Of a stretch of 64,000 nucleotides of DNA, positions 48,816-62,638 are shown piece after piece; the first letter of the stretch is position 1; each line of letters begins with the position of its first letter. The notes under the pieces are model-generated. The model was not told the DNA's origin. It saw only the letters and a list, made by a program, of their open reading frames with translations, and did no database searches. A program made the position numbers and the translations under genes. Source of the DNA: an uncultured Gammaproteobacteria bacterium (lineage in GTDB: Bacteria; Patescibacteriota; Microgenomatia; Levybacterales; UBA12049); contig CAYYSJ010000006.1 of assembly GCA_964474445.1 (NCBI GenBank), forward strand, positions 14,213 through 78,212, read 5' to 3'.

Positions 48816-49589
48816 TTACTCTTGGAGCAAGAAGTACTCTGTTCCAGAAGAATTTGATAAATTTTTCTTCACAATATCAGCACATTTGCTTGGATCTGGG
48901 ACAGAATCTAGATATATCTTTTCTTTTAATGCGGGGTTATATATCTCAATAGAACCAAAATTAAACAATCTTCCCCAAAAGCCTTGTTCAAAAGTTACTT
49001 GTTGTGTATGATTACACAAAAATATTTTTTCACTGTGTTTTAAAATACCGCTTTTATATCGTATTTCCCCCCGTCCGATATGATACCGGTTTGTTACCCA
49101 TCCTAAAGCGGCAATAAGCATAATAATAACTTTCATGATATTTAATAAGACAAAACAAACAAAATAAGCTGGCATTAATTGATTTTGTAATGCAGGAGAA
49201 AAGCTAAAATAAATTGATGGGAATTTTAAGCCAATGTAGATAAGGTCAAAAAATATTTCGATACTAATGAGATTGATAATAAGGAGGAAAACACTTCGTC
49301 GAAGGACAACTTTTTCTGGAACAGAAGTGGCCGCAAAATTGCTTTGAGTTATGTTAGAAGCAACGGATTCGATGGCTTGTGTACTGGTGTTTTTATCTAA
49401 AGGGTTTCGTCTTAAATAGGCATTACGGTATGCTTCGCGGAGAATGCCAAAAGGAACCTTTCGCAACCAAGAGTAAAATTCCTGTTGTTTCTTGTATTGT
49501 AGTGATTCGTGTCTCTCTTCATGGGATGGTATATTATTACCCCCTATAATCATTATCTGGATTATTACACAAATACAATTTGCTGTCAA
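48816..49589 (-). CDS. Membrane protein with a YdbS/YdbT-like bacterial PH (bPH_2) domain
   Basis: Two TM helices then IRYKSGILKHSEKIFLCNHTQQVTFEQGFWGRLFNFGSIEIYN (bPH_2-like pattern); TTG start. Confidence 0.4.
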   Translation of the reverse strand: MTANCICVIIQIMIIGGNNIPSHEERHESLQYKKQQEFYSWLRKVPFGILREAYRNAYLRRNPLDKNTSTQAIESVASNITQSNFAATSVPEKVVLRRSVFLLIINLISIEIFFDLIYIGLKFPSIYFSFSPALQNQLMPAYFVCFVLLNIMKVIIMLIAALGWVTNRYHIGRGEIRYKSGILKHSEKIFLCNHTQQVTFEQGFWGRLFNFGSIEIYNPALKEKIYLDSVPDPSKCADIVKKNLSNSSGTEYFLLQE

Positions 49590-49697: not shown

Positions 49698-49769
49698 TCC
49701 GCGATAGCTCAATGGTAGAGCAGGTCGCTGTTAACGACAAGGTTCTAGGTTCGAGTCCTAGTCGCGGAG
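49698..49769 (+). tRNA. tRNA-Asn, anticodon GTT
   Basis: Manual fold: acceptor TCCGCGA/TCGCGGA, D-arm GCTC-AATGGTA-GAGC, anticodon stem GGTCG/CGACA with loop CTGTTAA, T-arm CTAGG-TTCGAGT-CCTAG, discriminator G. Confidence 0.85.
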
Positions 49770-49833
49770 CAGAAATCGTCCTATAGCCATGTCCTAATGG
49801 GACAGCTTAAATTCTTTCTGTTACACTAATTAC

Positions 49834-50682
49834 GTGTTAATTATTTATTCATTCATTGCTCTGTTCGTATTGTTCCAAACTCTTAGTAGTGCATTATCCA
49901 GTTGGGTGACAAAAAAGACTCGGTATGAGGGGGCATATACCGTTCTTTGGCAACTTACTAGTGGAGGTCTTATGTTTTTTACTTTGCCTTTTGTTAAGCT
50001 TTATACAAATTTTGATGTAAAAATCCTTTTAATTTTTGCAATATCTCTTATTTTTTGGGCGTTAACAAATGTTTTCCTCTTTAAAGCTTATAAAAATGAG
50101 GATGTAAGCATAATAACAACTGTATATCCTCTTTATAATATTATCGCCTTCGGTGTTACTGCATTATTTTTTGGTGCTAAATTTAATTTGGTAATAGTAC
50201 TTGGATTTTTACTTATCACCTTTGCCAGTTTTTTGACTGGTTTTTATAGAACTAAATTTAATCCATCAAAAGGCGTAAGATTTATCCTTTTAAGTGTTCT
50301 TTGCGAAGGAATTGCACTTGGACTTAGTATTCCAGTAACAAAAGTTTACTCAAGCTTTCTGTATATTGCAGTTGGTTTTACTGTGCCTGGACTTATAAAT
50401 CTATTTCTTTTTATCCGTCCAAAAATATCACACCTTGCATATGAATTAAGTAGACAATGGAAAGCAATTTTTATTAATGCAATATGCGTTGATTTGCTTT
50501 ATATATTCGAATATGCAGCACTTCAAAGAGGAAATGTCTCACAGGTTGTTTCGTTTGGTGAAGCTTCTACATTATTAACTGTTATATCAGGTATAGTGTT
50601 TTTACACGAAAGAAAGCATATAGCTATCAAGCTAACAGCGGCAATAATAGTAATAGTTGGAATTATTTTAGCTCAGCAGTAG
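49834..50682 (+). CDS. DMT/EamA-like transporter family membrane protein (about 10 TM helices)
   Basis: Two internally similar five-helix halves; GTG start. Confidence 0.45.
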   Translation: MLIIYSFIALFVLFQTLSSALSSWVTKKTRYEGAYTVLWQLTSGGLMFFTLPFVKLYTNFDVKILLIFAISLIFWALTNVFLFKAYKNEDVSIITTVYPLYNIIAFGVTALFFGAKFNLVIVLGFLLITFASFLTGFYRTKFNPSKGVRFILLSVLCEGIALGLSIPVTKVYSSFLYIAVGFTVPGLINLFLFIRPKISHLAYELSRQWKAIFINAICVDLLYIFEYAALQRGNVSQVVSFGEASTLLTVISGIVFLHERKHIAIKLTAAIIVIVGIILAQQ

Positions 50683-50688
50683 GAAGCT

Positions 50689-50853
50689 TTAGATATCCTT
50701 TTCAATGTTTTTAATAATTTGCTCTAAGTCTTCAATTACCATTTGAAAATGTTCCATTTCTGCTTTTTTATGTGATTTCTTGAGCATTTTCAATACATCA
50801 ATTGCCTTAAGAATGTCTTTTATAATTTGATGCTTTGCATTTTCATCAGTCAT
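50689..50853 (-). CDS. Small hypothetical protein (54 aa), charged and helical
   Basis: ATG-initiated ORF MTDENAKHQIIKDILKAIDVLKMLKKSHKKAEMEHFQMVIEDLEQIIKNIEKDI, below track cutoff; no homology recognised. Confidence 0.25.
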   Translation of the reverse strand: MTDENAKHQIIKDILKAIDVLKMLKKSHKKAEMEHFQMVIEDLEQIIKNIEKDI

Positions 50854-51274
50854 GCTTGTAGTTTATCACCTATCTATTTGACTTAACAAGTATTGTGTTT
50901 GTTCAAAGATAATCTTTGGATATTCAACTTCCGCCAGTCTTCCGTAGAAATTGTCCCACTGGGCGAGCAGAAAAACACCGTTTCAGAACGAGTATCTCGT
51001 TAGCTTCAAAAGGTAGATAAAAGAATTTGGATGAGTAACCGAATGTTGGAGTGATGAAGTTCCTTTAAGACCATTTAAATGGTCTTGCACAATTAGTGAA
51101 CATTTAGAGTCTTCTCTTTAAAAATATCCATTGAACTACAAATCTGCATATTTGAATGATTCAAACCCTTTCATACTTTTTGTAAATTGTGATACGTCAA
51201 AAATTTTTATTAGACAAGATAGTAATTGCGTCACAAAAAGTTCTTTCTCCCGTTTTATATAAGTAGATAAAGAT

Positions 51275-51685
51275 ATGCCATCACTCATTCTTCTTATTGC
51301 ATTCGGACTTGGAATTGCATTTTTTGCAACGCAGAACACTGGAGCTGTTCATATCGTTTTGGGCAATTATGTTTTAACGAATATTCCACTTTATACGATC
51401 GTTGTTGGATCAATTCTTTTCGGCGTTTTTGTTAGCTGGCTAGTTAATATTGTGGATACACTTTTCACTCTTTTTACATTGCGCAATAAAGATAGTCTGT
51501 TAAAAAAATCTCAACATACCATGGAAAAATTGCAAGAAAAAAATTTTGAACTTGAAAAAGAGATAGCGCAACTTAAAGAAAATACAAATGTCCCAGATCA
51601 AGAAGACAGTGAGAAAAAAGATGTAAATTATGAACCAGAACTGCTTAAAAGTTTCAAACATGGATTAAACCTGTCTCAGCAATAA
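51275..51685 (+). CDS. LapA-domain (DUF1049)-like membrane protein with C-terminal coiled coil
   Basis: MPSLILLIAFGLGIAFFATQNTGAVHIVLGNYVLTNIPLYTIVVGSILFGVFVSWLV, then E/K-rich helix. Confidence 0.4.
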   Translation: MPSLILLIAFGLGIAFFATQNTGAVHIVLGNYVLTNIPLYTIVVGSILFGVFVSWLVNIVDTLFTLFTLRNKDSLLKKSQHTMEKLQEKNFELEKEIAQLKENTNVPDQEDSEKKDVNYEPELLKSFKHGLNLSQQ

Positions 51686-51963
51686 TAACGATGAATATAA
51701 AAGGGGGAATGTATATGGCAACAATATTGTATATTTTGCTCGTTTTTTTTACTCCTATGCAATTCAACTTTTTTTGGTTTTTTGTCAGTGTGCTTTTTTC
51801 TCTTGTTGAAACAGGCGGAAGAATCATTTACCGATATACAACAGATAAGTCATTGGCAGGACATATGGAGGAATTATAAAGTAGGTTTTTTCCTAATTTG
51901 ATTAGGAAAAAAGGACATTTTTAATATAATTCATTGGCAAACAGTGTTTGCTATACTGGGAAT

Positions 51964-52253
51964 ATGAAATCGGTAAATTGTGTCGATACATACATTGAGA
52001 ATGTCCAAAAGAAGTACAAGGGAGACTTCGAGAGATTCGGTAAGCAATCAAATCAGTTGCTCCAGATACTGAAGAAACGATAAGTTATGGAATGCCCTAT
52101 TATCATTACAAGGGACGACTTGCTTATTTTGCAGTCTTTAAAAACCATATAAGTCTTTTTGCAATTCCCCCAATTGTAGAAGAACACAAAAGTGAACTAG
52201 TAAAATATAAAATCAACAATTCAATTCCCTTTAGATCAAAAACTTTCTATTAA
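51964..52253 (+). pseudogene. DUF1801 (YdhG-like) gene disrupted by a frameshift
   Basis: Frame 1 MKSVNCVDTYIENVQKKYKGDFERFGKQ... stops at 52081-52083; a second frame continues IKSVAPDTEETISYGMPYYHYKGRLAYFAVFKNHISLFAIPP... to the stop at 52251-52253; shift near 52041-52050. Confidence 0.55.
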
Positions 52254-52317
52254 TTTGATAAAAAAGCTGGTGAAAGCACAGATTAAAAAAATTGAAGAAG
52301 GACAAAAGAGAAAATAA

Positions 52318-52680
52318 TTATTTTCTCCCAGGTTTCATACGAGAGCCTACTGCCAATGCTATTGCAGCAAAAAAGATGGCAAAATCTCGAAAAAGAATAT
52401 CAATTTGCGTAGAATTTGCTCCTATAATGCCCAAAAGCGTTAGTGCTGCAAGTGATGCAGCATAGAATGTCTTCCATCCGGTCAGTATCCATACACTGAG
52501 TACAGTCTGGAATAAAGAGAATCCAAGAAGCAGTAGTTGTGCAGGAAATATATTTCGTGCGATCTGAGGAATATAACCGATCCAATTGTATGGCTGAAAT
52601 GTTGCGGCAACTGCTGCATAGAGAAAAACACTAGCAATGCTAAGACGAAGAAGAAGAAAGACAAGTTTAGGATGGGACAT
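52318..52680 (-). CDS. DoxX-family membrane protein
   Basis: MSHPKLVFLLLRLSIASVFLYAAVAATFQPYNWIGYIPQ, four TM helices. Confidence 0.5.
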   Translation of the reverse strand: MSHPKLVFLLLRLSIASVFLYAAVAATFQPYNWIGYIPQIARNIFPAQLLLLGFSLFQTVLSVWILTGWKTFYAASLAALTLLGIIGANSTQIDILFRDFAIFFAAIALAVGSRMKPGRK

Positions 52681-52681
52681 A

Positions 52682-53164
52682 TTATTGGACGATGATTATT
52701 CCTGTTTGACCTGGGTTAAGATGATTATGATATCCGTAAGTGCCAGGTGTAGGGAATGTTAGGGAAAGCGATCCTCCATTAGAAAAGCTTCCGAGGTTAA
52801 GTGGCGGATAGGCAGTATGTGTGGGGTGGGGATTTGAATTGACAGTTGCAGTTTGGCCACTCTTATTAATCCACGTCACTGTTTGACCTGTTTTAATAGT
52901 AAGCGTTGCCGGAGACCATCCATTCTGTGTCAATGTAATGATATTTTGTTGTTGTGCTGGTGATTGAGCAGGCGTTGTTTTGCTTGCTGTTGTGGGAGAT
53001 GCATATTCTCCTCGTTCGTTATTGTTATAGCTACCCCTTCTGGCAAAGACAAAGTAGTAAATAAGACCGTACAAAATGGCTCCAATAACAACATAGAGAA
53101 GAAGCCATTGCCATAATGGTCGCTTTCCATAACCAGAAGTATTTTGTTGTATAGTATCTGCCAT
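52682..53164 (-). CDS. Membrane-anchored cupredoxin-fold protein lacking the canonical Cys copper ligand
   Basis: N-terminal TM; C-terminal ATLTIKTGQTVTWINKSGQTATVNSNPHPTHTAYPPLNLGSFSNGGSLSLTFPTPGTYGYHNHLNPGQTGIIIVQ fits the plastocyanin/amicyanin fold but has no Cys. Confidence 0.5.
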   Translation of the reverse strand: MADTIQQNTSGYGKRPLWQWLLLYVVIGAILYGLIYYFVFARRGSYNNNERGEYASPTTASKTTPAQSPAQQQNIITLTQNGWSPATLTIKTGQTVTWINKSGQTATVNSNPHPTHTAYPPLNLGSFSNGGSLSLTFPTPGTYGYHNHLNPGQTGIIIVQ

Positions 53165-53330
53165 CTTAGTTTATCTTCATACATTGAAAGTAAGAAATCA
53201 AGTCGTGGTTCCCAAAGAAATTGTGATGAGTTTAGAGAAAGGCGCTTCACAAATATAGTTGAAAAATTGGCCTTGCAGTCTGCTATAGTTATATGAAGCA
53301 GTAAGATAATTTGTAAAGGGGGTGATAACA

Positions 53331-53738
53331 ATGACGCAACTTACTCCATATCTTTCATTTGATGGAAATTGTACTGAAGCAATGGAATTTTATAAATCCT
53401 GTCTTGGTGGAGAGCTCGATATTCAAAAAGTAGGAGATAGTCCAATGAGAAGTGAAGATCCAAGAAAAAATGACCAGGTAATGCACTCAGTACTTACATC
53501 AAATGCGATTGTCTTAATGGCATCAGACCTTGTAATGGGAGGAGATCTACAGCGAGGAAATGGTGTAACACTCACTCTTAGTGGTGGCAGTAAAGAAGAA
53601 ACGAAAAAACTCTTTACCAAACTCTCAGAAGGTGGTCATGTAACCCACGCGTTTGAGGAAACATTCTTTGGCTATTATGGTGACTTAACTGACAAATACG
53701 GTGTTTTGTGGGCTTTCCAAGCTGACAAACAAGAATAG
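53331..53738 (+). CDS. VOC-superfamily protein, PhnB / 3-demethylubiquinone-9 3-methyltransferase-like
   Basis: MTQLTPYLSFDGNCTEAMEFYKSCLGGEL...FGYYGDLTDKYGVLWAF. Confidence 0.65.
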   Translation: MTQLTPYLSFDGNCTEAMEFYKSCLGGELDIQKVGDSPMRSEDPRKNDQVMHSVLTSNAIVLMASDLVMGGDLQRGNGVTLTLSGGSKEETKKLFTKLSEGGHVTHAFEETFFGYYGDLTDKYGVLWAFQADKQE

Positions 53739-54053
53739 TAATGTCATCATGAAGAGCATAAAAACAAAGCAATCGCCTATTGAATGAGATTAAAATTGTT
53801 GTGAACTATTCCAATCTTTTCAATGGCACTTCTTAAGAAAGAAAACTGCTGGTTGAATCTCTCCCAGCAGTTTTTTCTAGAACTTACATTCCAAAGAAAA
53901 CGATTTTAATAATTGCTGCAATAAGGACAATTGTAAAAAAGAAAATAGAAAGTCCAATAGGTGATCCCCATCCATACCACTTCATTGCATACTCTGTTGG
54001 TAGGCCATGTATATCTTCTAAATGATGGTTTTTATTCATTTATGCCACCTCCT

Positions 54054-54563
54054 TTATATGTCCAAATACTCAACTGGCTTTTCTTCTTTTTCTAAAAGAT
54101 TTACCAGTGTTGTATATAAGTCACTTGGTAGTTTCTTCTCGAAATCTTTTGGCTTTGTGCCGACAAAAAGTTCAGCATGCCAAGGATTTATAAGATAATC
54201 ACCACTCTCTTTCCATGCTTTTTTATCAGTCAAAAGTGAGGCTTTGCAAACAGTTATAACGTGTACTGCCCAGTTATCTTTTTGTGTATGATAGATGGTT
54301 GCTTGCATCCACCATTGCTTGTCATCACTAAATCCTTGCCATTTTCCAATAGTGCTTCCCACAAATCTTTTTTCGCTTTCTACATCATGGCTACCGACAC
54401 GCAGAGATACTTCCTTCATCCCTTTTGCTTTTTGCTGATGTCTCGCAACATACTCACGAAGTGCAATAGAAATAACGGAAGAGAGGGCTTCTCCTGCTAA
54501 CTGCTTTGCTTCTTCAAATAGTGATGCATCTGCTTCACTGACGTAAATAGTTTTATTTGGCAT
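54054..54563 (-). CDS. Hypothetical protein
   Basis: ATG at 54563 (MPNKTIYVSEADASLFEEAKQLAGEAL...); Trp-rich C-terminal half; no family recognised. Confidence 0.4.
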   Translation of the reverse strand: MPNKTIYVSEADASLFEEAKQLAGEALSSVISIALREYVARHQQKAKGMKEVSLRVGSHDVESEKRFVGSTIGKWQGFSDDKQWWMQATIYHTQKDNWAVHVITVCKASLLTDKKAWKESGDYLINPWHAELFVGTKPKDFEKKLPSDLYTTLVNLLEKEEKPVEYLDI

Positions 54564-54767
54564 ATGCATATAATATACGTATATGTATATTTTGTCAAGA
54601 AGGAGAAATGGTTGAGATGTGCTCACGGTGCTTGAAGGGGAAATCAAATTGGGAAATGGATTATATATATCAAAAACAGTAACATCAACAAAGTAACTTT
54701 TTTTAAAAAAGAAAATAATTCAAAAATATTCCTTGACGAGAATATTCCTCTTTGGTAATATATTTTT

Positions 54768-55088
54768 ATGAATCCACAGATGTTTAGTGTTTTATCTGAA
54801 CAAAATCGTTTAAATATTGTAGAACTCCTTTATGATCATCCTCGGTCAGTGAACGAGCTAGTTGATACTCTTCACCTTAGACAGCCTCAAGTAAGTAAAC
54901 ATTTAAAAGTTTTGGCAGATGCGGGGGTGGTTGACATGAAGCCAAATAAAAACAAAAGAGTTTATGCACTTAAGTCTGAACCATTTAAAGAATTAGACAA
55001 ATGGCTCGAAAAATATCGCAAAATGTGGGAGGACAGATTTGATAGACTCGATAAACTCTTAAGGAAGGAGGTTAAAAAAAAGAATTGA
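54768..55088 (+). CDS. ArsR/SmtB-family transcriptional regulator
   Basis: LSEQNRLNIVELLYDHPRSVNELVDTLHLRQPQVSKHLKVLADAGVV winged HTH. Confidence 0.75.
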   Translation: MNPQMFSVLSEQNRLNIVELLYDHPRSVNELVDTLHLRQPQVSKHLKVLADAGVVDMKPNKNKRVYALKSEPFKELDKWLEKYRKMWEDRFDRLDKLLRKEVKKKN

Positions 55089-55465
55089 AATTACTAAAAA
55101 GTATTGGAGCAGTACTTGCCGGTTTTATGGCCGTTGTTATTTTAAGTATTGTTACCGATTTTATTGTTGAATCACTAAAGTTTTTCCCTCCAGCGAATCA
55201 GTCAACTGCCTATGTTTGGTGGATGCTTTTAATTGCACTTATCTATAGAACTCTCTATACAGTAGTGGGAGGCTATGTGACCGCTTTGTTAGCGCCAAAC
55301 AAGCCAATTCGTCATACAGTAATTCTTGGAATAGTAGGAATTATTGCAGGGATATTAGGAACAGTGGCCAACTGGAATATGGGAAATCAATGGTATCCAA
55401 TTATGCTAGTAGTCTTGGCTCTTCCTTCTACATGGTTAGGAGGTCGGTTGTTTGCAAAAAAGTGA
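55085..55465 (+). CDS. Small four-TM membrane protein, hypothetical
   Basis: Hydrophobic ORF overlapping the arsR stop by 4 nt (operonic). Confidence 0.4.
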   Translation: MKLLKSIGAVLAGFMAVVILSIVTDFIVESLKFFPPANQSTAYVWWMLLIALIYRTLYTVVGGYVTALLAPNKPIRHTVILGIVGIIAGILGTVANWNMGNQWYPIMLVVLALPSTWLGGRLFAKK

Positions 55466-55535
55466 ATTGTCATTCTTGATCTTATAGAGAACCCGACAAG
55501 AGATTTTGTTTTTGTGGAAATGACAATGAAAGGAG

Positions 55536-56048
55536 GTGACAAAAATGGAAGAACAGAAGAAAATAATCATTGAAAGAATTTTTGATGCTCCACGAGAAAA
55601 AGTGTGGAAAACATGGACTACTCCAGAACTTGTGAAAGAGTGGTGGGGTCCAGAAGGCTTCTCTGCACCTTCTGTAAAAATAGATTTTCGAGTTGGAGGG
55701 AAATATATCTATGCGATGCATGGGCCAGAAGGATCTCCTTGGGATAGAGATTTATATAGTGCGGGAGTCTTTAAAGAAATCGTTCCAATGGAAAGACTTG
55801 TTATCACAGATTATTTTTCCGATGACGAAGGAAATAAAACGAGTCCGACAGAGCAAGGTTTAAGCAGTGATATGCCGGCAGAAATGACAGTCGTCGTGCG
55901 CTTTGAAGATGTTAATGGAAGTAAGACCAAACTCTCAATTATTTATACTGCTGATTCAGAAGAGATGTATCAAGCTATGATCAAAAGTGGTATGCAAGAA
56001 GGATGGAGTACCTCTTTGGATAAGTTTGCAAGGGTTGTGGAAAGATAA
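55536..56048 (+). CDS. SRPBCC-superfamily protein (AHSA1 / activator of Hsp90 ATPase homologue-like)
   Basis: IIERIFDAPREKVWKTWTTPELVKEWWGPEGFS; strong RBS AAAGGAGGTGA. Confidence 0.7.
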   Translation: MTKMEEQKKIIIERIFDAPREKVWKTWTTPELVKEWWGPEGFSAPSVKIDFRVGGKYIYAMHGPEGSPWDRDLYSAGVFKEIVPMERLVITDYFSDDEGNKTSPTEQGLSSDMPAEMTVVVRFEDVNGSKTKLSIIYTADSEEMYQAMIKSGMQEGWSTSLDKFARVVER

Positions 56049-56096
56049 AAGTTTTTATCTTATTTCGGGGTAAGCATAGAAAGGAGGTGAGCATGA

Positions 56097-56591
56097 ATGG
56101 CACAGACACAAAAAATTACACCATATTTATGGTTTGACAATAATGCAGAGGAAGCAGTGAGTTTCTATATTTCAGTATTTGGAGATGGCAAAGTCTTACA
56201 TACAAGCCGATTTGATGAAGCAGGGTCAAAAGTGTCAGGTATGCCTGTAGGTACAGTAATGGTCATAGAATTTGAGCTCTTTGGTCAAAAGTTTGCAGCT
56301 CTCAACGGAGGACCTGTGTTTCAATTTAATGAGGCAATTTCTTTTCTGGTAAATTGTGACACCCAAGAAGAAATAGATAAGTATTGGGAAGTACTTTCAT
56401 CAGATCCGAAAGACGAACAGTGTGGATGGTTGAAAGATAAATTTGGTCTTTCCTGGCAAATTGTTCCAAAGCAACTTAGTGAGCTAATGAGTGATCAAAA
56501 TGCAAAAAAGTCAGGAGCAGTCATGCAAGCGATGCTGCAAATGAAAAAGATTGATATTGGACAGTTGCAGAAAGCATATGAGAGGGCCTAA
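56097..56591 (+). CDS. VOC-superfamily protein, PhnB-like
   Basis: KITPYLWFDNNAEEAVSFYISVFGDGKV...FGLSWQIVP; RBS GAAAGGAGGTG. Confidence 0.65.
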   Translation: MAQTQKITPYLWFDNNAEEAVSFYISVFGDGKVLHTSRFDEAGSKVSGMPVGTVMVIEFELFGQKFAALNGGPVFQFNEAISFLVNCDTQEEIDKYWEVLSSDPKDEQCGWLKDKFGLSWQIVPKQLSELMSDQNAKKSGAVMQAMLQMKKIDIGQLQKAYERA

Positions 56592-56673
56592 GTTCTCTTG
56601 TTGTCCTGAAAAGTTCAGGACAACGAACAAATAAAATTCCGAAATAAGTTCGGAATTTTATGATCGAAAGGAG

Positions 56674-57162
56674 GTGAAACAGATGAATCAAACAAAAATA
56701 ACAACAGAGCCTAACAAACAGGAAATCTGGATTGAACGTGAATTTGACGCCCCACGAGAATTAGTTTTCAAACTAACAACAGATCCAAAATATATCCCAC
56801 AGTGGTGGGGACCACGCATGTATACTACGTCAATAGATAAAGCGGACATACGGTCTGGCGGAGAATGGCGATATGTGCAGCAAGCAAATGGTCAGGATTT
56901 TGGATTTCATGGCGTATATCATGAAGTCTTAGCACCAGAGAGAGTTATTGACACATTTGAATGGGAAGGACTTCCTGAGAAAGGGCATGTTATTTTGGAG
57001 ACTGCGCGGTATGAAGAACTACCAGAGAATAGAACCAAACTACGAATACAGCAAGTCTTCCAATCAGTTCAAGATCGTGATGGCATGGTAGCCTCCGGTC
57101 AAAAAGAAGGACTTGAAGAGTCTTATGAAAGACTTGATGAGTTACTTGCAAAACTGAAGTAA
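56674..57162 (+). CDS. SRPBCC-superfamily protein (AHSA1-like), second copy
   Basis: [30 protein letters not shown]; RBS AAAGGAGGTGA. Confidence 0.7.
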
Positions 57163-57207
57163 TTCAAGGAGAAATTACACACTCGGTGTGAGTATAAAAT
57201 ACATCGG

Positions 57208-57642
57208 GTGTGGATTTTCCCTGAATTGTTTGACATAATAAATCAAATGGCTGAAGAGAAAACATCACAGAAAATGCTATGGTTAGGAAGAGGGCTTAGC
57301 ACATTTGTTACTCTTTTTTTACTCCTTGATGCAGTTATTCATGTCATGAATGTCCCTCCAGTTGTTGCTGCATCTCACCAATTAGGGCTTCCAGACTCAA
57401 TGGCTCTGACAATTGGGATTATCGAATTTATCTCCCTCATATTGTATGTCATTCCAAAAACATCAATACTTGGAGCAATTCTTTTAACGGGCTATTTGGG
57501 AGGTGCAGTTGCTAGCAATTTACGCGCAAATATGCCTCTTCTTTCAAACACTCTTTTTCCTGTTTACACAGGACTTTTTGTTTGGGGCGGCCTTTTTTTC
57601 AGGGAAAAAAGACTGCGGGAACTGATTCCTTTTAAAAAATAA
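57208..57642 (+). CDS. DoxX-like membrane protein
   Basis: Four TM helices (LWLGRGLSTFVTLFLLLDAVIHV...); start may be the internal ATG (MAEEKTSQK). Confidence 0.4.
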   Translation: MWIFPELFDIINQMAEEKTSQKMLWLGRGLSTFVTLFLLLDAVIHVMNVPPVVAASHQLGLPDSMALTIGIIEFISLILYVIPKTSILGAILLTGYLGGAVASNLRANMPLLSNTLFPVYTGLFVWGGLFFREKRLRELIPFKK

Positions 57643-57643
57643 T

Positions 57644-58213
57644 ATGAGGAAAGTGTTTTTATTTATGATGACTTCCCTCGACGGATATATTGAAGGGCCA
57701 GACCATGATTTGTCATGGCACAATGTCGATGATGAGTTTAATAAATTTGCTGCAGAACAAATGGGTGAGGCCGGTACTATTATATTTGGTCGTCGAACAT
57801 ATCAATTGATGGAAAGCTTTTGGCCAACAAAGGCAGGACTAGAGGAAGATCCAGTAGTGGCAAAATATATGAATGAAGCACAAAAGGTTATTTTTTCTCA
57901 TACATTAGAAAGCGTTACAGAAACAGAAATTTGGAAAAATGTTCGGTTGGTGAGAAGCAATGTTGCACAAGAAGTTGCAAAACTCAAAGAACAATTAGGA
58001 AAAGATATTGTTGTGCTTGGAAGTAATAATTTTTGTGTCACACTGTTGGAATTAGGTTTACTTGATGAAGCTCGTATTATGGTTAATCCTGTTGTAATAG
58101 GTAGGGGGACGCCACTCTTTGTAGGTATAAAAGAAAAAGTAAAATTTGAACTTCTCAAAACAAGAAATTTTCAAAACGGGAATATCCTTCTTACCTACGA
58201 CGTCATAAGTTAA
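57644..58213 (+). CDS. Dihydrofolate reductase-like protein (RibD C-terminal domain family)
   Basis: MRKVFLFMMTSLDGYIEGPDHDLSWH...IIFGRRTYQLM...VLGSNNFCVTLLELGLLDEARIMVNPVVIGRGTPLF. Confidence 0.7.
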   Translation: MRKVFLFMMTSLDGYIEGPDHDLSWHNVDDEFNKFAAEQMGEAGTIIFGRRTYQLMESFWPTKAGLEEDPVVAKYMNEAQKVIFSHTLESVTETEIWKNVRLVRSNVAQEVAKLKEQLGKDIVVLGSNNFCVTLLELGLLDEARIMVNPVVIGRGTPLFVGIKEKVKFELLKTRNFQNGNILLTYDVIS

Positions 58214-58219
58214 AAATTT

Positions 58220-58489
58220 CTATCTTCCGAAAAGCTTCCTTAATTCATTTTTTGCCTCTTCTAAAATTTCTCTTTTTTCAGATGTAAGGTTTTTTCCTGC
58301 ACGATTGATATAAAAATTAAGCATGCTCATAGCTGACTGAAATGGAGAAGCCTTTCTTCTTGTGCTCGTTTCTGCGGAGTGTTTCAGGCTTTGAGCAATT
58401 TTCTTTGGACTCTTCCACGTAAATACTCCTTCATCTAAATCTAGAGCTCTGCTTGTTTTGGTAATCTCTGCAGACCATCGAGTTTTCAT
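58220..58489 (-). CDS. DUF3175-family small protein
   Basis: WSAEITKTSRALDLDEGVFTWKSPKKIAQSLKHSAETSTRRKASPFQSAMSMLNFYINRAGKNL matches my memory of the DUF3175 consensus. Confidence 0.55.
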   Translation of the reverse strand: MKTRWSAEITKTSRALDLDEGVFTWKSPKKIAQSLKHSAETSTRRKASPFQSAMSMLNFYINRAGKNLTSEKREILEEAKNELRKLFGR

Positions 58490-58555
58490 AAAAATATTGT
58501 ACTACGCATGAGTAATAAGAGTAAGGTTGTGTCAAAAACATATTGAAATCTTACA

Positions 58556-58954
58556 ATGGAAGAATATAATAGAAATATGCTGAATTTTAATTCTATTCTT
58601 CTCTTCTCCGAAAATCCCGAAGCACTTGCAGATTTTTATAAAAGTGTTTTTGAAAAAAATCCGGATATGGTTGGAGATGGCTATTTTGGCTTTATGGTGG
58701 GGAGTGGATTTTTTACTATTGGCCCTCATGATAAAGTAAAAGGGGAAAATTCGAATCCAGAACGGGTTCTCCTAAATTTTGAGGCAGAAGATGTACAGCA
58801 GGAATTTGAAAGAATAAAAAATTTGGGAGCAACAGTGATTGCAGAGCCTTATCAGCCCTCAGAATCAGAAGAAGAGATGTGGATAGCAACATTTGCAGAT
58901 CCTGATAATAATTACTTTCAGCTCATGTCCCCATGGAAGCAACCAAGCAACTGA
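58556..58954 (+). CDS. Glyoxalase/VOC-family protein
   Basis: βαβββ-like pattern ILLFSENPEALADFYKSVF ... GFMVGSGFFTIGPH ... GATVIAEP. Confidence 0.55.
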   Translation: MEEYNRNMLNFNSILLFSENPEALADFYKSVFEKNPDMVGDGYFGFMVGSGFFTIGPHDKVKGENSNPERVLLNFEAEDVQQEFERIKNLGATVIAEPYQPSESEEEMWIATFADPDNNYFQLMSPWKQPSN

Positions 58955-59515
58955 TTATTCACACCCTGCTTTTTCTCCTCTTGTAATAAGCTGATAAAGA
59001 GTTTGAACAGTCCAACCATTATTTTGTGCTAGGAGCCTATGTCCACAAAGACTGGTTGTTTTATATACATCAGGTCCCAATGACAACACAGTATCATAGT
59101 CTGCAAGTGCCTTTTGCTTATCTTTGAGATAATAGTAATTGTATATGTCTCCTCGATTCATCAAGGCGTTGACATATGCAGGTCGAATCTGAATAGCAGC
59201 ATCCAAATCTGGTAAAGCTTTACTATATTGGTGCATTCTCATATAGGTATATGCCCTATTGTTATATGCTTCAGCAAAATTTGGATTGGCTTGCAAAGCT
59301 TGTGTATAGTCGACAATTGCCTTGAGGCAATCGCCTATATCATAGTCATAATTTCCTTGATCAAAGTAGTCTTGAGCTGTCGTGACTTGAGTTGGTGGTT
59401 TGTTAGTGGTTATATGCGTCTTAATGCATTGCGTGTCTTGCTGCGATGTTTTTAAGCTAATAACGACTCCGCCTCCAATGATAAAAAGAATACATAACAA
59501 AACAACATACCTCAT
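58955..59515 (-). CDS. Secreted/lipo- TPR-repeat protein
   Basis: Signal MRYVVLLCILFIIGGGVV; TPR repeats (AIVDYTQALQANPNFAEAYNNRAYTYMRMHQYSKAL...). Confidence 0.6.
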   Translation of the reverse strand: MRYVVLLCILFIIGGGVVISLKTSQQDTQCIKTHITTNKPPTQVTTAQDYFDQGNYDYDIGDCLKAIVDYTQALQANPNFAEAYNNRAYTYMRMHQYSKALPDLDAAIQIRPAYVNALMNRGDIYNYYYLKDKQKALADYDTVLSLGPDVYKTTSLCGHRLLAQNNGWTVQTLYQLITRGEKAGCE

Positions 59516-59739
59516 AAGATTTTATTCTAGTCTCCAGGAGAAGACTATCTATATACTATATATAGTATAGTCAGGTTTTTGCAAAAAGAGTACATGCACT
59601 TTATACTTATGTTATGAAAAGAAAAAGAGTGAGAATAAAAAGTAAGCAGTTACAAAAACTTCTAGAAAAAGGAGAGAGACAAGAAGTTCGGAAGGATTTC
59701 TTTGAACTTCTTCGCCGTGCAGCTAATCATACCCCTGTT

Positions 59740-60210
59740 TCATCTTGAGGTATCTTGTTTCTGGACCACTTTAAATTCAAATGTGTTAAAGAATGTCCAT
59801 TTAATAACTTCTTCAGATTCAGTCAATAGGTCTCCATTGTTCAATCTCATTAAATCTTTTATGTTTTTATACATTCTCCATGCAGTTTTATATGTAACTT
59901 CTAGTTCTTGTTGCAATTGGCGGATAGAAATTTTTGCGCGTGTATGTGTCATAAGAAACATACAGAAAAACCACAAGCGAAGCGGTGTTGTCGTTTTCTC
60001 GAAGATAGTTCCAACAAGTGGATATACCTGATGTCTACAATATTCACATGCATATGCGTTGCGTTTTTCCACTTTATAATGTTTGGTTATCCTGTTACAA
60101 AGAGGACATTCTATGCCCTTTGGATAGCGGAGTTTTTTTACTTCTTCCAGGCATGATTCATCAGAAGGGAATTGTTTTAAAAAATCTGAGAAAGTAAATG
60201 GCCGAATCAT
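59740..60210 (-). mobile_element. IS1595-family transposase, N-terminal zinc-ribbon/HTH fragment (DDE domain missing)
   Basis: FPSDESCLEEVKKLRYPKGIECPLCNRITKHYKVEKRNAYACEYCRHQVYPLVGTIFEKTTTPLRLWFFCMFLMTHTRAKISIRQLQQELEVTYKTAWRMYKNIKDLM matches the IS1595/ISXO2 N-terminal domain; ORF stops after 156 aa with no DDE-like frame downstream. Confidence 0.6.
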
Positions 60211-60349
60211 AAAAATATTATATTGAATTTATTTACGTGTTTTCAAGGGATAACTAGTTAAATTGCTTGTTGACGACTTTTCAAGTTTTTGTTTACTATT
60301 GTAATAGATACAATTTAGTATCTGTTAGTCTTTATACTATTTAATATAT

Positions 60350-62638
60350 ATGAGAAATACAATTTCATTATTTGTTGATGGTGCAATAACACTTCTTCTC
60401 CTCGTTGTTGCTGGTCTTACCCCTCTTCTTTTCATTGGTCAGATGACAGAATTCTATGAAATGCCAAAACTGGCTTTTTTAGTTGTTAGTACAATATTAC
60501 TTCTTGGTCTTTGGATTTTCTCCTGGATTGTGAAAGGGAAAGTAAGTATCAATAGAACGCCTCTTGATATTCCATTGTTAGCATTATTAGTAGTTATTCT
60601 CGTTTCAACATACTTCAGTGTCTCCAAGCCAGTTGCTATTTTTGGTAACTTTCCGAAAGTACATGGATCAACTATTGCGTGGGTAACGTATATACTATTA
60701 TATTTTGTTACTGTATCCAATTTGCGATCTTTGAATAAAATAAAAAATTTTCTCTATGTTTTGTATGCAAGTGGAGTGGTAGTTGCAGTTCTCACAATCC
60801 TCTCATTCTTTAGTGTTTTTCTTCCTTTAGATTTTGCAAGAGCTGTTAATTTTACCCCAACTGGTTCATCCTTCTCAACTATTGCATTCTTGTTATTGCT
60901 ATTGCCATTACCATTGCTCTCTTTAGTTAATCCTAGTAAATATATGCCAATTCCAATGGCCACCATATTGGCAATACTCTTTGGTGTTACTATTGCTTTA
61001 ACTGGATCACTTCCAACGTATGTTGCACTGCTGCTTGTTGTTGCCCTGTGTGTTGTCGTTGCAAAGCCACAACATATCCGCAGAACTCTTCCATTGTTTG
61101 TCTTACCAATTGTTGCAACTGCATTGGCCTTAGCACTTGCGTACTTACCACTTCCAGGAAATAAAGTGCAAAAATTAGAAGCAAACTTCCCTAAAGAAGT
61201 ACAACTTCCTTTCTCAATATCATGGAAAATAAGTGCATCAGCTTTTAGAGATGGTCCATTCATTGGCTCAGGTCCTTCCTCCTATCTTTTCAACTTTACA
61301 AGTTACAAACCAGCAGAGTTCAATGCAACCAATCTTTGGAGCTTCTCATTTGATGCAGCCTACAACGAATTCTTGCAAGTCTTGGGTACCTTAGGAGTCT
61401 TTGGACTTGGTGCTGTAGTACTTTTTGTACTGGTTGTTTTGAATGTTACTAGAAAAAATATAGCTATGCACAGTGGAGAAGAAGATGAAAGTACTCGTAT
61501 AATGCTTCCATCTTTAGCAGTGAGTGGAATTATGTCTGTTGTCCTGCTTGCTATTCATGCGACGACACTTGTCTCTATTGTTGTTACATTTTTTGTGCTC
61601 GCAGCTTTCATGATGTCTCAAAGATCTATTAGAGAAAAAGTTATGGAATTATCCATGGGTCTTAAAGCATCAACAGCAGATGGATCACACTTTGACCTTT
61701 TCCCAGTTATTATTTTCATCCTTTTCCTTGTGGGGGCTGTACCTACTATGTATCAAACCTATACAACAGTTGCTGCAGACTACTATCATAGACAAGCTCT
61801 TGTCCAAGCAAATAAGAGTGGTACGGCAACATATCAGAACTTGCAAAAAGCAGAAACCCTTAACCCATACATTGACCTTTACAGAGTTGATATGGCGCAA
61901 ACTAATTTTGCCTTGGCAAATGCTCTTGCTGCTCAAAAAGGACCAACTCAAGCAAATCCAAATGGCTCTTTGACTGACCAAGATAAAGCAACGATTCAGA
62001 CCCTTCTTTCTCAAGCAATTGCTGAGGGAAGAGTAAGTGTAGCTCTCAATCCTCTTTCATCAAGAAATTGGGTAGTATTAGCATCAGTTTACAGAAATAT
62101 TAGTGGGGTTGCTCAAAACGCACTTGCATTTGCCCTTGATGCATATGGACGAGCAATCCAACTTGATCCTCTTAATCCTGCTCTTCGTGTAAGTGTTGGA
62201 GGAATTTACTACAGTGCTAAGAATTATCCTCTTGCAACAAGATATTTCACAGATGCAGCTAATTTGAAACCTGATTATGCAAACGCATACTACAATTTAG
62301 CTATAACATTACAAGATAGTAATGACCTTACTAATGCTGCTCTTGTTGCACAACAACTTGTTAACCTTGTCTCAAAAGATACACAAAGTCCTGACTATAA
62401 AACAGCGAATTCACTTCTTTCAGATCTGAAATCTAAATTAGCAAATGCTCAATCTCAACAGCAGACACAAGCAGGACAATTGCAATCCACGCCAACACAA
62501 TCAAATAGCGCATTGCAAAACCCAAATCTTCCTAATGTAACGACATTAAGTAATCCTCCACAGGTAACACCAGTACCAGCTGTAAAGCCAAATCCTAATG
62601 CAAACATCCCTCAGCTAAGTCCAGTACCTTCTAAATAA
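60350..62638 (+). CDS. Large polytopic membrane protein (O-antigen ligase-like region) with C-terminal TPR repeats and a Pro/Gln-rich tail
   Basis: About 12 TM helices; TPR-like YYNLAITLQDSNDLTNAALVAQQLV; tail NPPQVTPVPAVKPNPNANIPQLSPVPSK. Confidence 0.5.
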   Translation: MRNTISLFVDGAITLLLLVVAGLTPLLFIGQMTEFYEMPKLAFLVVSTILLLGLWIFSWIVKGKVSINRTPLDIPLLALLVVILVSTYFSVSKPVAIFGNFPKVHGSTIAWVTYILLYFVTVSNLRSLNKIKNFLYVLYASGVVVAVLTILSFFSVFLPLDFARAVNFTPTGSSFSTIAFLLLLLPLPLLSLVNPSKYMPIPMATILAILFGVTIALTGSLPTYVALLLVVALCVVVAKPQHIRRTLPLFVLPIVATALALALAYLPLPGNKVQKLEANFPKEVQLPFSISWKISASAFRDGPFIGSGPSSYLFNFTSYKPAEFNATNLWSFSFDAAYNEFLQVLGTLGVFGLGAVVLFVLVVLNVTRKNIAMHSGEEDESTRIMLPSLAVSGIMSVVLLAIHATTLVSIVVTFFVLAAFMMSQRSIREKVMELSMGLKASTADGSHFDLFPVIIFILFLVGAVPTMYQTYTTVAADYYHRQALVQANKSGTATYQNLQKAETLNPYIDLYRVDMAQTNFALANALAAQKGPTQANPNGSLTDQDKATIQTLLSQAIAEGRVSVALNPLSSRNWVVLASVYRNISGVAQNALAFALDAYGRAIQLDPLNPALRVSVGGIYYSAKNYPLATRYFTDAANLKPDYANAYYNLAITLQDSNDLTNAALVAQQLVNLVSKDTQSPDYKTANSLLSDLKSKLANAQSQQQTQAGQLQSTPTQSNSALQNPNLPNVTTLSNPPQVTPVPAVKPNPNANIPQLSPVPSK

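Follow-up and report, generated by a model that had tools for sequence, protein, structure and literature searches.

A probable long-lived flexible gene slot at tRNA-Asn, with mostly resident cargo, in a Candidatus Levybacteria genome

In the 64 000-nucleotide window (the whole stretch of DNA analysed), a core block of purA, dnaG and rpoD is followed by a bPH_2 gene, a tRNA-Asn and a run of short genes that extends to a conserved right-hand block. Gene products were assigned by profile searches against Pfam and NCBIfam, and tRNAs by ARAGORN and Rfam, as listed below.

48816..49589, minus: bPH_2 membrane protein, encoded in the rpoD/tRNA-Asn interval (Pfam PF03703)
49698..49770, plus: tRNA-Asn(GTT), intron-free, left anchor of the variable slot (ARAGORN; Rfam RF00005, 67.6 bits)
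49834..50682, plus: EamA/DMT transporter, tRNA-proximal (Pfam PF00892)
50689..50853, minus: 54-aa hypothetical ORF, in the stretch 50683-51274
51275..51685, plus: LapA-domain-like membrane/coiled-coil protein (PF06305, 24 bits, below cutoff)
51964..52317, plus: DUF1801 (YdhG-like) pseudogene (PF08818 on stitched peptide)
52318..52680, minus: DoxX (PF07681, 23.3 bits, marginal)
52682..53164, minus: cupredoxin-like protein with N-terminal transmembrane segment (PF13473, 25.3 bits, marginal)
53322..53738, plus: PhnB-like VOC protein, PhnB1 (PF06983, E = 2e-11)
53884..54039, minus: 51-aa membrane ORF with an AGGAGG site (sequence inspection; called on L082)
54054..54569, minus: EXLDI-family protein (NCBIfam TIGR04342, 56.5 bits)
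54700..54767, plus: putative ArsR promoter/operator (five-species alignment; promoter scan match at 54733-54761)
54768..58213, plus: seven-gene operon (ArsR, 126-aa membrane protein, AHSA1a, PhnB2, AHSA1b, DoxX_2, RibD_C)
54768-55088, plus: ArsR, winged-HTH, first operon gene (Pfam PF01022)
55545-56048 and 56683-57162, plus: AHSA1/SRPBCC pair, AHSA1a and AHSA1b (Pfam)
56097-56591, plus: PhnB2, VOC/PhnB-type (Pfam)
57247-57642, plus: DoxX_2 (Pfam)
57644-58213, plus: RibD_C/DHFR-like protein (Pfam)
58220..58489, minus: DUF3175 (Pfam)
58556..58954, plus: Glyoxalase_6, VOC/PhnB-type (Pfam)
58955..59515, minus: TPR protein (Pfam)
59614..59748, plus: conserved 44-aa basic ORF, in the stretch 59516-59739, convergent with the next gene and overlapping its 3' end
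59740..60210, minus: 156-aa Zn-ribbon and HTH-like protein (PF12760; NF033547 positions 2-54 of 215 only)
60350..62638, plus: Wzy_C and TPR membrane protein (Pfam)
62881..63960, minus: 359-aa protein, function unassigned (unk359)

The original prediction, a tRNA-Asn(GTT) followed by many short ORFs, was borne out both by the tRNA calls and by a median gene length of 157 aa in the region versus 361 aa in the rest of the window (p = 6e-6), with coding densities of 0.77 and 0.93 respectively. Pfam and NCBIfam also agreed with the families it had named (a DMT transporter, two DoxX, a cupredoxin, three VOC/PhnB, ArsR, two AHSA1, a DHFR-like protein and DUF3175), and the frameshift that it had seen in DUF1801 was confirmed: the peptide stitched from three frames over 51964-52317 matched PF08818 with 43.9 bits (E = 3e-11), and three-frame translation revealed two or more frameshifts together with an in-frame stop. 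DoxX and the cupredoxin-like gene form a co-directional pair (52318..53164, minus strand), with cupredoxin homologues 3' of rpoD in L053, L093 and others. In 50854-51274 (~420 nt, GC 0.31) we detected neither a gene nor an RNA family, with no Rfam match. The segment 53739-54053, previously read as non-coding, holds the 51-aa membrane ORF as well as a bidirectional terminator-like hairpin; this ORF and the EXLDI gene are both called on L082, a contig identical to that of the window.

At the far end, the gene at 59740-60210 had been taken for a truncated IS1595 transposase, a reading ruled out by the ~155-aa length of its family, its fixed synteny and its full-length homologues; what stood is the PF12760 zinc ribbon lacking a DDE domain. 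Its product has 265 homologues of 152-179 aa (56-81% identity, 97-100% coverage), conserved end to end where aligned, and no second copy of the gene was found within the window. In the relatives examined, the gene always diverges from a Wzy_C/TPR gene (~760 aa) and has the 44-aa ORF behind it, the Zn-ribbon/Wzy pair being retained even at 54-61% identity. Wzy (63-77%) and unk359 (43-51%) are both syntenic with it in L085, L088, L089, L090, L096 and L101, and only Wzy (63-67%) was seen beside it in L100 and L103. The 44-aa ORF, which marks the left edge of the right-hand block, recurs in L085, L088, L090 and L096 at 40-51% identity with an invariant DFxELLxR motif. Like IS1595 transposases, the protein has an N-terminal CxxC...CxxC and an HTH-like segment, and over the first 120-135 aa of true family members (285-330 aa) its identity is ~50%; unlike them, it is short, single-copy and ends in a conserved C-terminal tail of its own. 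We regard the gene as descended from the N-terminal portion of an IS1595 transposase; being complete, constant in length and fixed in synteny, it is not an IS remnant. Length conservation, single copy, fixed Wzy_C/44-aa ORF neighbours and the C-terminal tail point to domestication rather than decay, and the domain family and its conservation suggest that the protein probably regulates the divergent Wzy_C promoter by binding DNA there.

In function, the region centres on the seven-gene operon headed by arsR, with intergenic gaps of at most 90 nt. Its putative promoter consists of TTGACG, a spacer with the palindrome-like GAGAATATTCC, and TAATAT, with the ATG 6 nt past the −10 box (6-9 nt across five species), and is probably leaderless and self-repressed. 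Over the five species the promoter/operator columns are invariant while the upstream flank varies. Of the four relatives in the alignment, three have GGAATATTCC as the operator-like site, and L093 has GTATATTCC. Ribosome-binding sites of the form GAAAGGAGGTGA precede AHSA1a, PhnB2 and AHSA1b, and the membrane-protein gene has AGGAGG in another context. Strong AGGAGG sites, predicted as a mark of lateral cargo, are indeed commoner inside the region (before 4 of 17 genes, versus 2 of 46 elsewhere; Fisher p = 0.04), and all four genes belong to this one operon (55085-57162); since these sites and the ArsR operator are kept in relatives, they are not a foreign signature. The ArsR protein is devoid of cysteine and hence lacks the thiolate metal and arsenite sites known from classical ArsR/SmtB sensors. 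As in ArsR/SmtB operons, a winged-HTH ArsR comes first, 3' of a conserved palindrome overlapping its own promoter; unlike in those operons, the partners are SRPBCC, VOC, DoxX and RibD_C proteins, with no efflux pump or arsenate reductase. The cysteine-free repressor probably binds the GGAATATTCC palindrome, and a non-metal signal would release it to allow expression of the small ligand-binding SRPBCC/AHSA1 proteins and the VOC/PhnB, DoxX and RibD_C-like reductase proteins. Judging from their domain families and conservation, these proteins may protect the cell in a general way against toxic or oxidising small molecules.

Much of this cargo recurs in relatives. Eleven orthologues, including those of the ArsR operon, are clustered in largely the same order and with 51-84% identity in L095, a contig of the sister-species MAG that includes L002. 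These identities fall broadly in the range of purA and bPH2 (74-75%), dnaG (87%) and rpoD (98% in L002) being higher. Operon counterparts in L085 and L095 comprise all genes but RibD_C with their order kept (52-84%), and L088 has ArsR, the 126-aa membrane protein, AHSA1a and RibD_C (70-72%) adjoining the Zn-ribbon gene; at the nucleotide level, the operon of L095 is 71.8% identical to that of the window over 2.2 kb, and core sequence 76.2% over 6.4 kb. L085 has seven cargo orthologues (53-75%), which, as in L088, adjoin the Zn-ribbon/Wzy pair. Both L085 and L095 have PhnB1 (74-76%), Glyoxalase_6 (67-72%) and the TPR protein (57-62%), the LapA-like orthologue of L095 (51%) adjoins ArsR there, and DUF3175 homologues lie 3' of rpoD in L009 and L069 (71-75%). 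The L095 cluster is flanked by LytR_C and by FTR1, hemE and hemCD, with neither tRNA-Asn nor Wzy seen beside it; with such different flanks, the cluster may have been relocated as a block or may be mobile as a whole, and the bin membership of L093 and L095, which rests on MAG binning, could be wrong. MAGs with the labels Chloroflexi, Bacteroidota and Doudnabacteria encode AHSA1b-type proteins at 63-73% identity, making older inter-phylum transfer of individual genes plausible. In L101 the left and right blocks lie 8.3 kb apart, with tRNA-Asn and wholly different cargo between them; the two blocks appear to be anciently linked.

For the left side, we retrieved 80 loci, mostly labelled Levybacteria. 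The purA-dnaG-rpoD order is kept in about 80 Levybacteria/Microgenomates loci, and 44 of the 80 have tRNA-Asn 3' of rpoD, with a group I intron in the homologues from L002, L004, L005 and L006. The bPH_2 gene is itself accessory, with a tblastn match among relatives in L002 only (74%), and the rpoD-to-tRNA segment ranges from 64 nt to 7.8 kb. DNA 3' of the tRNA, as foreseen, differs in each near relative (e.g. L002, L004, L006). In ten relatives, reading frames of large serine recombinases end inside tRNA-Asn, and in an eleventh, L077, such a gene abuts a tRNA 3' fragment; excisionase-like and replication-initiator genes adjoin the recombinase in L050. Five to six relatives have the tRNA 3' end directly repeated downstream (L021, L025, L053, L056, L066, L101). 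Where contigs end less than 10 kb past rpoD (41 cases), ten of them end in or at the tRNA, an approximately ten-fold enrichment, and where the tRNA is inverted (L101, L103) the variable DNA is still on its 3' side. As these loci indicate, the 3' flank of tRNA-Asn is a true recombination/integration hotspot in the lineage and across the phylum. The window itself revealed no integrase or integrase remnant, and the region no phage, plasmid or defence signatures. The predicted direct repeat of the tRNA 3' end did not materialize, the best score in the window being 9, where the null gives 9.8 ± 1.1 (p = 0.86); a weak 16/21 match at 50953-50973, not above chance, has a spacing similar to that of the real repeats in L021 and L056.

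Composition did not set the region apart as predicted. It is native except for the AT-rich EamA end: gene GC (p = 0.20) and GC3 (0.288 versus 0.296 in the core, p = 0.60) do not differ, tetranucleotide deviation is limited to windows covering 50-52 kb (z 1.8-2.6), and codon-usage distance is slightly higher (p = 0.013), a measure confounded by short gene lengths. EamA (GC 0.318) has the lowest GC3 in the window (0.205). Its family is rare, with only three close homologues (60-75%) among 5.8 billion proteins, two of which were examined and lie in unrelated surroundings; EamA is the strongest candidate for a gene inserted later.

We consider it probable that the stretch from 49771 to ~59613 is a flexible slot of long standing, set between conserved blocks of a Candidatus Levybacteria (Patescibacteria/CPR) genome, with most of its cargo resident and vertically inherited. 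Its flanks would be purA-dnaG-rpoD-tRNA-Asn on the left and the 44-aa ORF, Zn-ribbon protein, Wzy_C-TPR and unk359 on the right. The ArsR operon, PhnB1, the LapA-like gene, Glyoxalase_6 and the TPR protein would be residents of a clade accessory pool, on which local rearrangement, the gain of genes such as EamA by the tRNA, and decay, as in the DUF1801 pseudogene, were later superimposed. The slot would stay variable because integrative elements with large serine recombinases repeatedly target the tRNA-Asn 3' end; such targeting is seen in relatives and may also have shaped the window. Since no relative has an empty slot, gains in it cannot be dated. The original prediction of a decayed island, a single element integrated at tRNA-Asn that lost its integrase and att site, ends in a truncated IS1595 and brought in the entire 10.5 kb laterally, is very improbable. 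The synteny break, beginning at the 3' end of a tRNA that is clearly an integration site in the lineage, stood, as did the short genes, low coding density, single pseudogene and differing content in L002, L004 and L006. Against one lateral island spanning 49.7-60.2 kb are the lack of an att repeat or recombinase remnant, native GC, GC3 and k-mer composition over 52-60 kb, a supposed IS end that is an intact, conserved and syntenic gene, cargo orthologues at purA/bPH2-range divergence and anchored to the right-hand block, and regulatory DNA conserved over five species; for 54.7-60.2 kb the model is largely refuted. Uniform composition and synteny conserved in all relatives had been named as refuting it: composition was uniform, and synteny was conserved only in part.

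A possible, more tentative variant confines recent acquisition at tRNA-Asn to the left end (~49771-51274: EamA, the 54-aa ORF and the 420 nt of AT-rich non-coding DNA), the remainder being ancestral. Low GC (0.31), the tetranucleotide signal, the scarcity and scattered contexts of EamA homologues and the spacing of the 16/21 match are in line with it; yet that match is at chance level, a 10-TM membrane protein and intergenic DNA are expected to be AT-rich anyway, there is no mobility gene, and EamA homologues at 60-75% fit inheritance within the clade. This variant refines rather than excludes the flexible slot. That the region is plain lineage-specific chromosome content and tRNA-Asn plays no role, its adjacency being coincidental and the variation reflecting deep divergence (~76% nucleotide identity), is unlikely: the available relatives are indeed different species or genera, the rpoD-tRNA segment varies as well, and L062 and L063 have cargo families on the 5' side of the tRNA too, but purA-dnaG-rpoD synteny survives the same divergence upstream, and the recombinases in eleven relatives, the tRNA-end repeats, the contig-end enrichment and the inverted tRNAs of L101 and L103 all single out its 3' end. 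Overall, the region is ordinary, ancestral and flexible, with no recently inserted decayed island.

The slot shares features with several known systems. The High-Pathogenicity Island of Yersinia and E. coli lies at asn-tRNA genes, carries a P4-type tyrosine integrase and is flanked by direct repeats. Likewise, accessory genes in the window begin at the tRNA-Asn 3' end, a site reused in the lineage; unlike that island, the window has no integrase, direct repeats or compositional contrast, most cargo is common to relatives at purA/bPH2-range divergence, and the recombinases at tRNA-Asn in those relatives are large serine enzymes. Short, mostly co-directional genes with their own ribosome-binding sites and some intervening hairpins recall integron cassette arrays, but the window has no IntI, attC-type repeats or repeated inter-gene element beyond the ribosome-binding site, and gene order is kept in relatives. 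Plasticity zones or flexible genomic islands, hypervariable regions of Helicobacter, Chlamydia and marine bacteria, are similar in their fixed position and conserved flanks, with species-variable content in which, here, PhnB/VOC, ArsR, AHSA1 and DUF1801 recur. The slot differs from them in belonging to a small-genome CPR phylum and in its anchor, a tRNA that in relatives has recombinase genes overlapping its 3' end.

The most plausible reading of the region from tRNA-Asn(GTT) to a 156-aa zinc-ribbon gene (49698-60210) is a flexible slot of long standing that separates two conserved blocks, purA-dnaG-rpoD-tRNA-Asn on the left and a 44-aa ORF, the zinc-ribbon gene and a Wzy_C/TPR gene on the right. 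As a kind of feature it is ordinary, a flexible region next to a tRNA, in a phylum that has been little studied. The original prediction was right in describing a tRNA-anchored accessory zone but largely wrong in inferring one decayed island bounded by an insertion sequence. For rpoD, dnaG and purA in the window (GC ~38.5%), the nearest relatives are MAGs labelled Candidatus Levybacteria or Levyibacteriota (Patescibacteria or CPR). Samples SRR12266073/74 contain contigs identical to the window, and a search for the exact rpoD protein gave a 3.5-kb contig only. Taxon labels are unreliable here, many public MAGs with Levybacteria-like purA-dnaG-rpoD being titled 'uncultured Gammaproteobacteria', 'Saccharimonadales' or 'Acidiferrales' (L002, L005, L010 and L021 among the relatives' loci retrieved for comparison, and many others). 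No description of the locus was found in the literature.

Features of the region (window coordinates)
49698-49770: tRNA-Asn(GTT), without intron (ARAGORN, Rfam)
49834: start of the first accessory gene
50689-50853: 54-aa ORF, in a supposed non-coding stretch
51964-52317: frameshifted DUF1801 gene
53884-54039: 51-aa membrane ORF, in a supposed non-coding stretch
54768-58213, + strand: operon beginning with ArsR
59614-59748: conserved 44-aa ORF, in a supposed non-coding stretch

With its first accessory gene starting just after the tRNA, the region begins at the tRNA 3' end. Pfam and NCBIfam bore out the predicted gene list almost item by item, identifying EamA, a LapA-like protein, DoxX, a cupredoxin-like protein, a PhnB-like VOC protein and an EXLDI-family protein; the operon genes for ArsR, a 126-aa membrane protein, AHSA1, PhnB, AHSA1, DoxX_2 and RibD_C; and then DUF3175, Glyoxalase_6, a TPR protein and the 156-aa protein with an IS1595 zinc ribbon. 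The frameshifted DUF1801 was confirmed, its three stitched frames scoring 43.9 bits against PF08818, and the ORFs are indeed short (median 157 aa in the region versus 361 aa elsewhere, p=6e-6), with a coding density of 77% compared to 93% elsewhere. The stretches described as non-coding are partly coding, containing the 51-, 54- and 44-aa ORFs, and no hidden RNA genes or riboswitches were detected in them by Rfam at E<=1, where the sole matches were the tRNA and a chance-level PhrS (19 bits, E=0.29). Promoter-like sites in the region showed no enrichment over shuffles and terminator-like sites a weak one (11 versus 6.4 +/- 2.7).

The far end of the region had been taken for a truncated IS1595 transposase. 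The 156-aa protein does have the IS1595 zinc ribbon (PF12760, E=2e-10, with an invariant CxxC...CxxC), but it is not a fragment, since its length and C-terminus are conserved and its genomic position is fixed. The best 120 of its 265 homologues are 152-179 aa long and 56-81% identical, with coverage mostly 97-100% and PF12760 only, and conservation runs end to end through the CxxC...CxxC, a GVTYKTAWRM motif and a C-terminal tail specific to the family. The gene is single-copy within the window and divergent from the ~760-aa Wzy_C/TPR gene in nine of nine distinct contexts examined (the window, L085, L088, L089, L090/L091, L096-L099, L100, L101 and L103), at identities as low as 54%; in most of these the small 44-aa ORF comes next, convergent with it. 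Downstream there is no DDE catalytic domain or degraded remains of one, the 3' flank being taken by that ORF. Because the NCBIfam transposase model NF033547 aligns only over positions 2-54 of 215, and the first 120-135 residues share ~50% identity with the N-terminal parts of genuine IS1595 transposases of 285-330 aa (metagenome matches), the protein appears to derive from a transposase N-terminal domain. The gene is read as a domesticated IS1595 N-terminal domain belonging to the conserved right block; the supposed insertion-sequence end is an intact, syntenic gene, which should not be annotated as a transposase pseudogene, and the variable region ends at ~59613, not 60210.

The Wzy_C/TPR gene (~760 aa), the divergent ~155-aa zinc-ribbon protein and the basic 44-aa ORF, which overlaps the 3' end of the zinc-ribbon gene, occur as a three-gene unit in the window (59614-62638) and in L085, L088, L089, L090, L096, L100, L101 and L103, down to 54-61% identity. 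In the window, 139 bp (60211-60349) separate the zinc-ribbon gene from Wzy_C. The zinc-ribbon protein is a possible domesticated regulator of the surface-glycan gene.

The foreign composition predicted for an island was not found. GC is 0.362 in the region versus 0.385 in the rest, a gap that stems from 50-52 kb (EamA plus intergenic DNA, GC 0.31), while region and core genes do not differ in GC (p=0.20) or GC3 (0.288 versus 0.296, p=0.60). Tetranucleotide distance is unremarkable over 52-60 kb, k-mer deviation being confined to 50-52 kb, and codon-usage distance is slightly higher in the region (p=0.013), a measure confounded by gene length. The EamA segment is the only part of the region with any compositional oddity and a patchy, context-shifting distribution, and a recent insertion of this tRNA-proximal segment is conceivable, if rather unlikely. 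The expected direct repeat of the tRNA-Asn 3' end was absent: no exact repeat of >=12 nt occurs anywhere in the window, and when the final 45 nt of the tRNA, together with 15 nt of flanking DNA, were aligned locally to 49.8-60.3 kb, the best score was 9 versus 9.8 +/- 1.1 in shuffles (p=0.86), the same test being positive in relatives L021, L025, L053, L056, L066 and L101. Fuzzy matches to the tRNA end in the window were not above chance; one of 16/21 at 50953-50973 was discarded as such. Pfam found no recombinase family, integrase or remnant in the region, and tblastn of the relatives' serine recombinases against the window gave only matches with E>0.5. Nor did any of 80 genome and 80 metagenome loci hold an empty site joining rpoD/tRNA-Asn directly to the zinc-ribbon and Wzy genes; content 3' of the tRNA differs in L002, L004 and L006, again with no empty site seen. 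Two other origins were considered and rejected: nothing specific to phage, defence systems or plasmids emerged from PHROGs, PADLOC or blastn against phages and plasmids, and an integron-like cassette array was discarded for want of IntI, attC-like repeats or any repeated inter-gene element.

Comparison with relatives cut both ways. Content after the tRNA is variable, as predicted, but the cargo is shared, being tied to the right-hand block in L085 and L088 and clustered in L095. In L088, RibD_C, AHSA1a, the 126-aa membrane protein and ArsR lie directly beside the zinc-ribbon gene at 70-72% identity, in the order and orientation of the window (zinc-ribbon 72%, Wzy 73%), and L085 has Glyoxalase_6, TPR, the membrane protein, AHSA1a, ArsR, PhnB1 and RibD_C at 53-75% (zinc-ribbon and Wzy both 77%). 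L095 is a contig of the same MAG as L002, the nearest species representative (rpoD 98%, dnaG 87% and purA 75% identical). There, eleven genes of the region are clustered elsewhere in the sister genome at 51-84% identity (RibD_C, PhnB1, LapA-like, ArsR, membrane protein, AHSA1a, PhnB2, AHSA1b, DoxX_2, TPR and Glyoxalase_6), with the operon in the same order except for RibD_C. Nucleotide identity to this MAG is 71.8% over 2.2 kb of the operon versus 76.2% for 6.4 kb of core. A smaller version of the cluster occurs in L093, from the MAG of L005. The cargo is best read as mainly resident, clade-level accessory genes.

The operon itself bears on this reading. A ~45-nt block upstream of ArsR is near-invariant in five species, DNA further upstream not being so, and comprises TTGACA, a spacer containing the palindrome GGAATATTCC, and TAATAT; the distance from the -10 box to the ATG is just 6-9 nt. 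Three of the four relatives in the alignment have this exact palindrome, and the window and L093 each carry one mismatch. ArsR has no Shine-Dalgarno sequence in its upstream segment (54700-54767), and its mRNA is probably leaderless, whereas AGGAGG-type sites precede four downstream genes in the window. Such strong sites, proposed as a sign of lateral origin, are enriched in the region (4/17 genes versus 2/46, p=0.04), but all four fall within this one operon, and GAAAGGAGGTGA/GGGGGTGA ribosome-binding sites also precede the orthologues in relatives, so they do not mark foreign DNA. Together with the orthologues in relatives, these conserved elements point to a functional, self-regulated operon inherited vertically since before these species diverged. 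ArsR/SmtB metal(loid) sensors have a cysteine-based metal or arsenite binding motif. The ArsR of the window shares their winged helix-turn-helix (PF01022, E=1.5e-11) but differs in that its 106-aa sequence is cysteine-free and has no such motif. From the domain families, the targets of this repressor would be small ligand-binding proteins along with VOC, DoxX and reductase-like ones, with a possible role in defence against small molecules that are toxic or oxidising. Between operon genes, immediately 5' of ribosome-binding sites (56592-56682 and 57163-57207), there are strong hairpins, namely GTTGTCCTGAAAAGTTCAGGACAAC and one with a 13-bp stem at 56631-56661, which may be processing, stability or attenuation elements.

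In relatives, the tRNA-Asn flank is a hotspot. The purA-dnaG-rpoD order is syntenic in ~80 loci, 44 of them with tRNA-Asn after rpoD, and every near relative has different content after the tRNA: a GH5 cellulase in L002; S6PP-like, PRTase, ArsR, oxidoreductase, FMN reductase and AlkA genes in L004; and a serine recombinase in L006. A count over 26 relatives covered 145 ORFs lying up to 5.5 kb 3' of the tRNA, with ORFs overlapping the tRNA filtered out; 149 Pfam families were matched, the commonest being PhnB-type VOC (10) and Glyoxalase (6), with AHSA1, DUF1801 and ArsR at 3 each. Searches with tblastn found large serine recombinases (500-580 aa; Resolvase, Recombinase and Zn_ribbon_recom domains) in eleven relatives, only 23-62% identical to one another.

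Serine recombinases in relatives (locus:coordinates; all on the strand opposite to the tRNA)
L006:11504-12995
L013:11197-12858
L016:13410-15023
L022:4579-6273
L050:11316-12908
L060:12764-14509
L062:16779-18341
L065:12490-14064
L070:2473-4083
L077:14497-16155
L103:3776-5287

Their reading frames end inside the tRNA in ten loci, those with a mapped tRNA end, and in seven the overlap is 13 nt, with the stop codon in the T-stem. In L050, an excisionase-like gene and a replication-initiator gene lie beside the recombinase. No distal ends of these elements were found within 10 kb. The data suggest that Levybacteria and Gottesmanbacteria harbour a varied family of integrative elements that target tRNA-Asn. 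In L021, L025, L053, L056, L066 and L101 the tRNA 3' end recurs as a direct repeat of 13-56 nt, 0.1-1.9 kb downstream, and the repeats in L056 bracket two PhnB genes. Moreover, of 41 contigs stopping within 10 kb after rpoD, 10 stop in or at the tRNA, ~10x the uniform expectation (contig ends at tRNA-Asn: L001, L005, L008, L012, L017, L042, L043, L058, L064, L067, L076), which fits a branching assembly graph, structural variation between strains or a tRNA segment that is repeated. On the single contig of L101, the only locus linking both conserved blocks, Wzy and the zinc-ribbon gene are followed by tRNA-Asn, then 7 kb of unrelated cargo, then rpoD-dnaG, an arrangement that shows an ancient link between the two blocks; its tRNA is inverted relative to the window, with variable DNA still on the tRNA 3' side. 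The tRNA is also inverted relative to rpoD in L103 (3716-3788; L101, 11817-11891), L047, L059 and L069; in L101 and L103 its place is not beside rpoD but 1.3 kb from the zinc-ribbon gene, with variable DNA 3' of it. These cases suggest inversions of the whole slot.

Recombination at tRNA-Asn thus keeps the slot plastic in relatives, and we infer the same for the window's own past. A broader proposal, which we hold tentatively and think rather unlikely as it stands, is that the tRNA-Asn 3' end is a phylum-wide attachment site for serine-recombinase elements and the slot the accreted, recombinase-free residue of repeated captures. Elements of a diverse family in Levybacteria and Gottesmanbacteria, with recombinase frames terminating inside the tRNA, would deliver small detoxification modules at tRNA-Asn, such as the PhnB pair of L056 with its tRNA-end repeats, and these would later become fixed as regulated chromosomal genes. 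If true, reduced CPR genomes would gain genes by a serine-recombinase path that targets a tRNA.

The interest of the region is mainly corrective: what looked like a decayed island with an insertion-sequence scar is a native accessory neighbourhood, under regulation and for the most part inherited vertically. Three tractable leads on accessory gain and retention in symbiotic reduced genomes follow: CPR bacteria, with genomes of ~1 Mb, maintain a dedicated flexible slot that holds small proteins of the VOC, SRPBCC and DoxX types; serine recombinases repeatedly target tRNA-Asn in the phylum; and an IS1595 N-terminal domain has apparently been domesticated beside a Wzy_C/TPR surface-glycan gene. 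The by-products, mostly outside the window, outrank the finding itself in interest, namely the tRNA-embedded recombinases, the IS1595 domain paired with Wzy_C and group I introns.

Such introns, of 186-231 nt (Rfam RF00028, 65-107 bits), lie at or just after the anticodon of tRNA-Asn(GTT) in the four closest relatives.

Group I introns in tRNA-Asn of relatives (locus:coordinates)
L002:12499-12722
L004:2671-2862
L005:12499-12684
L006:11253-11483

ARAGORN misses these tRNA-Asn genes because the intron interrupts the tRNA. Group I introns are already known in CPR tRNAs (PMC8172020), and no literature report specific to tRNA-Asn was found. The tRNA of the window is intron-less at the homologous site (49732-49734), and L015, L022 and L065 have gaps of comparable length in the tRNA, L060 one of 582 nt.
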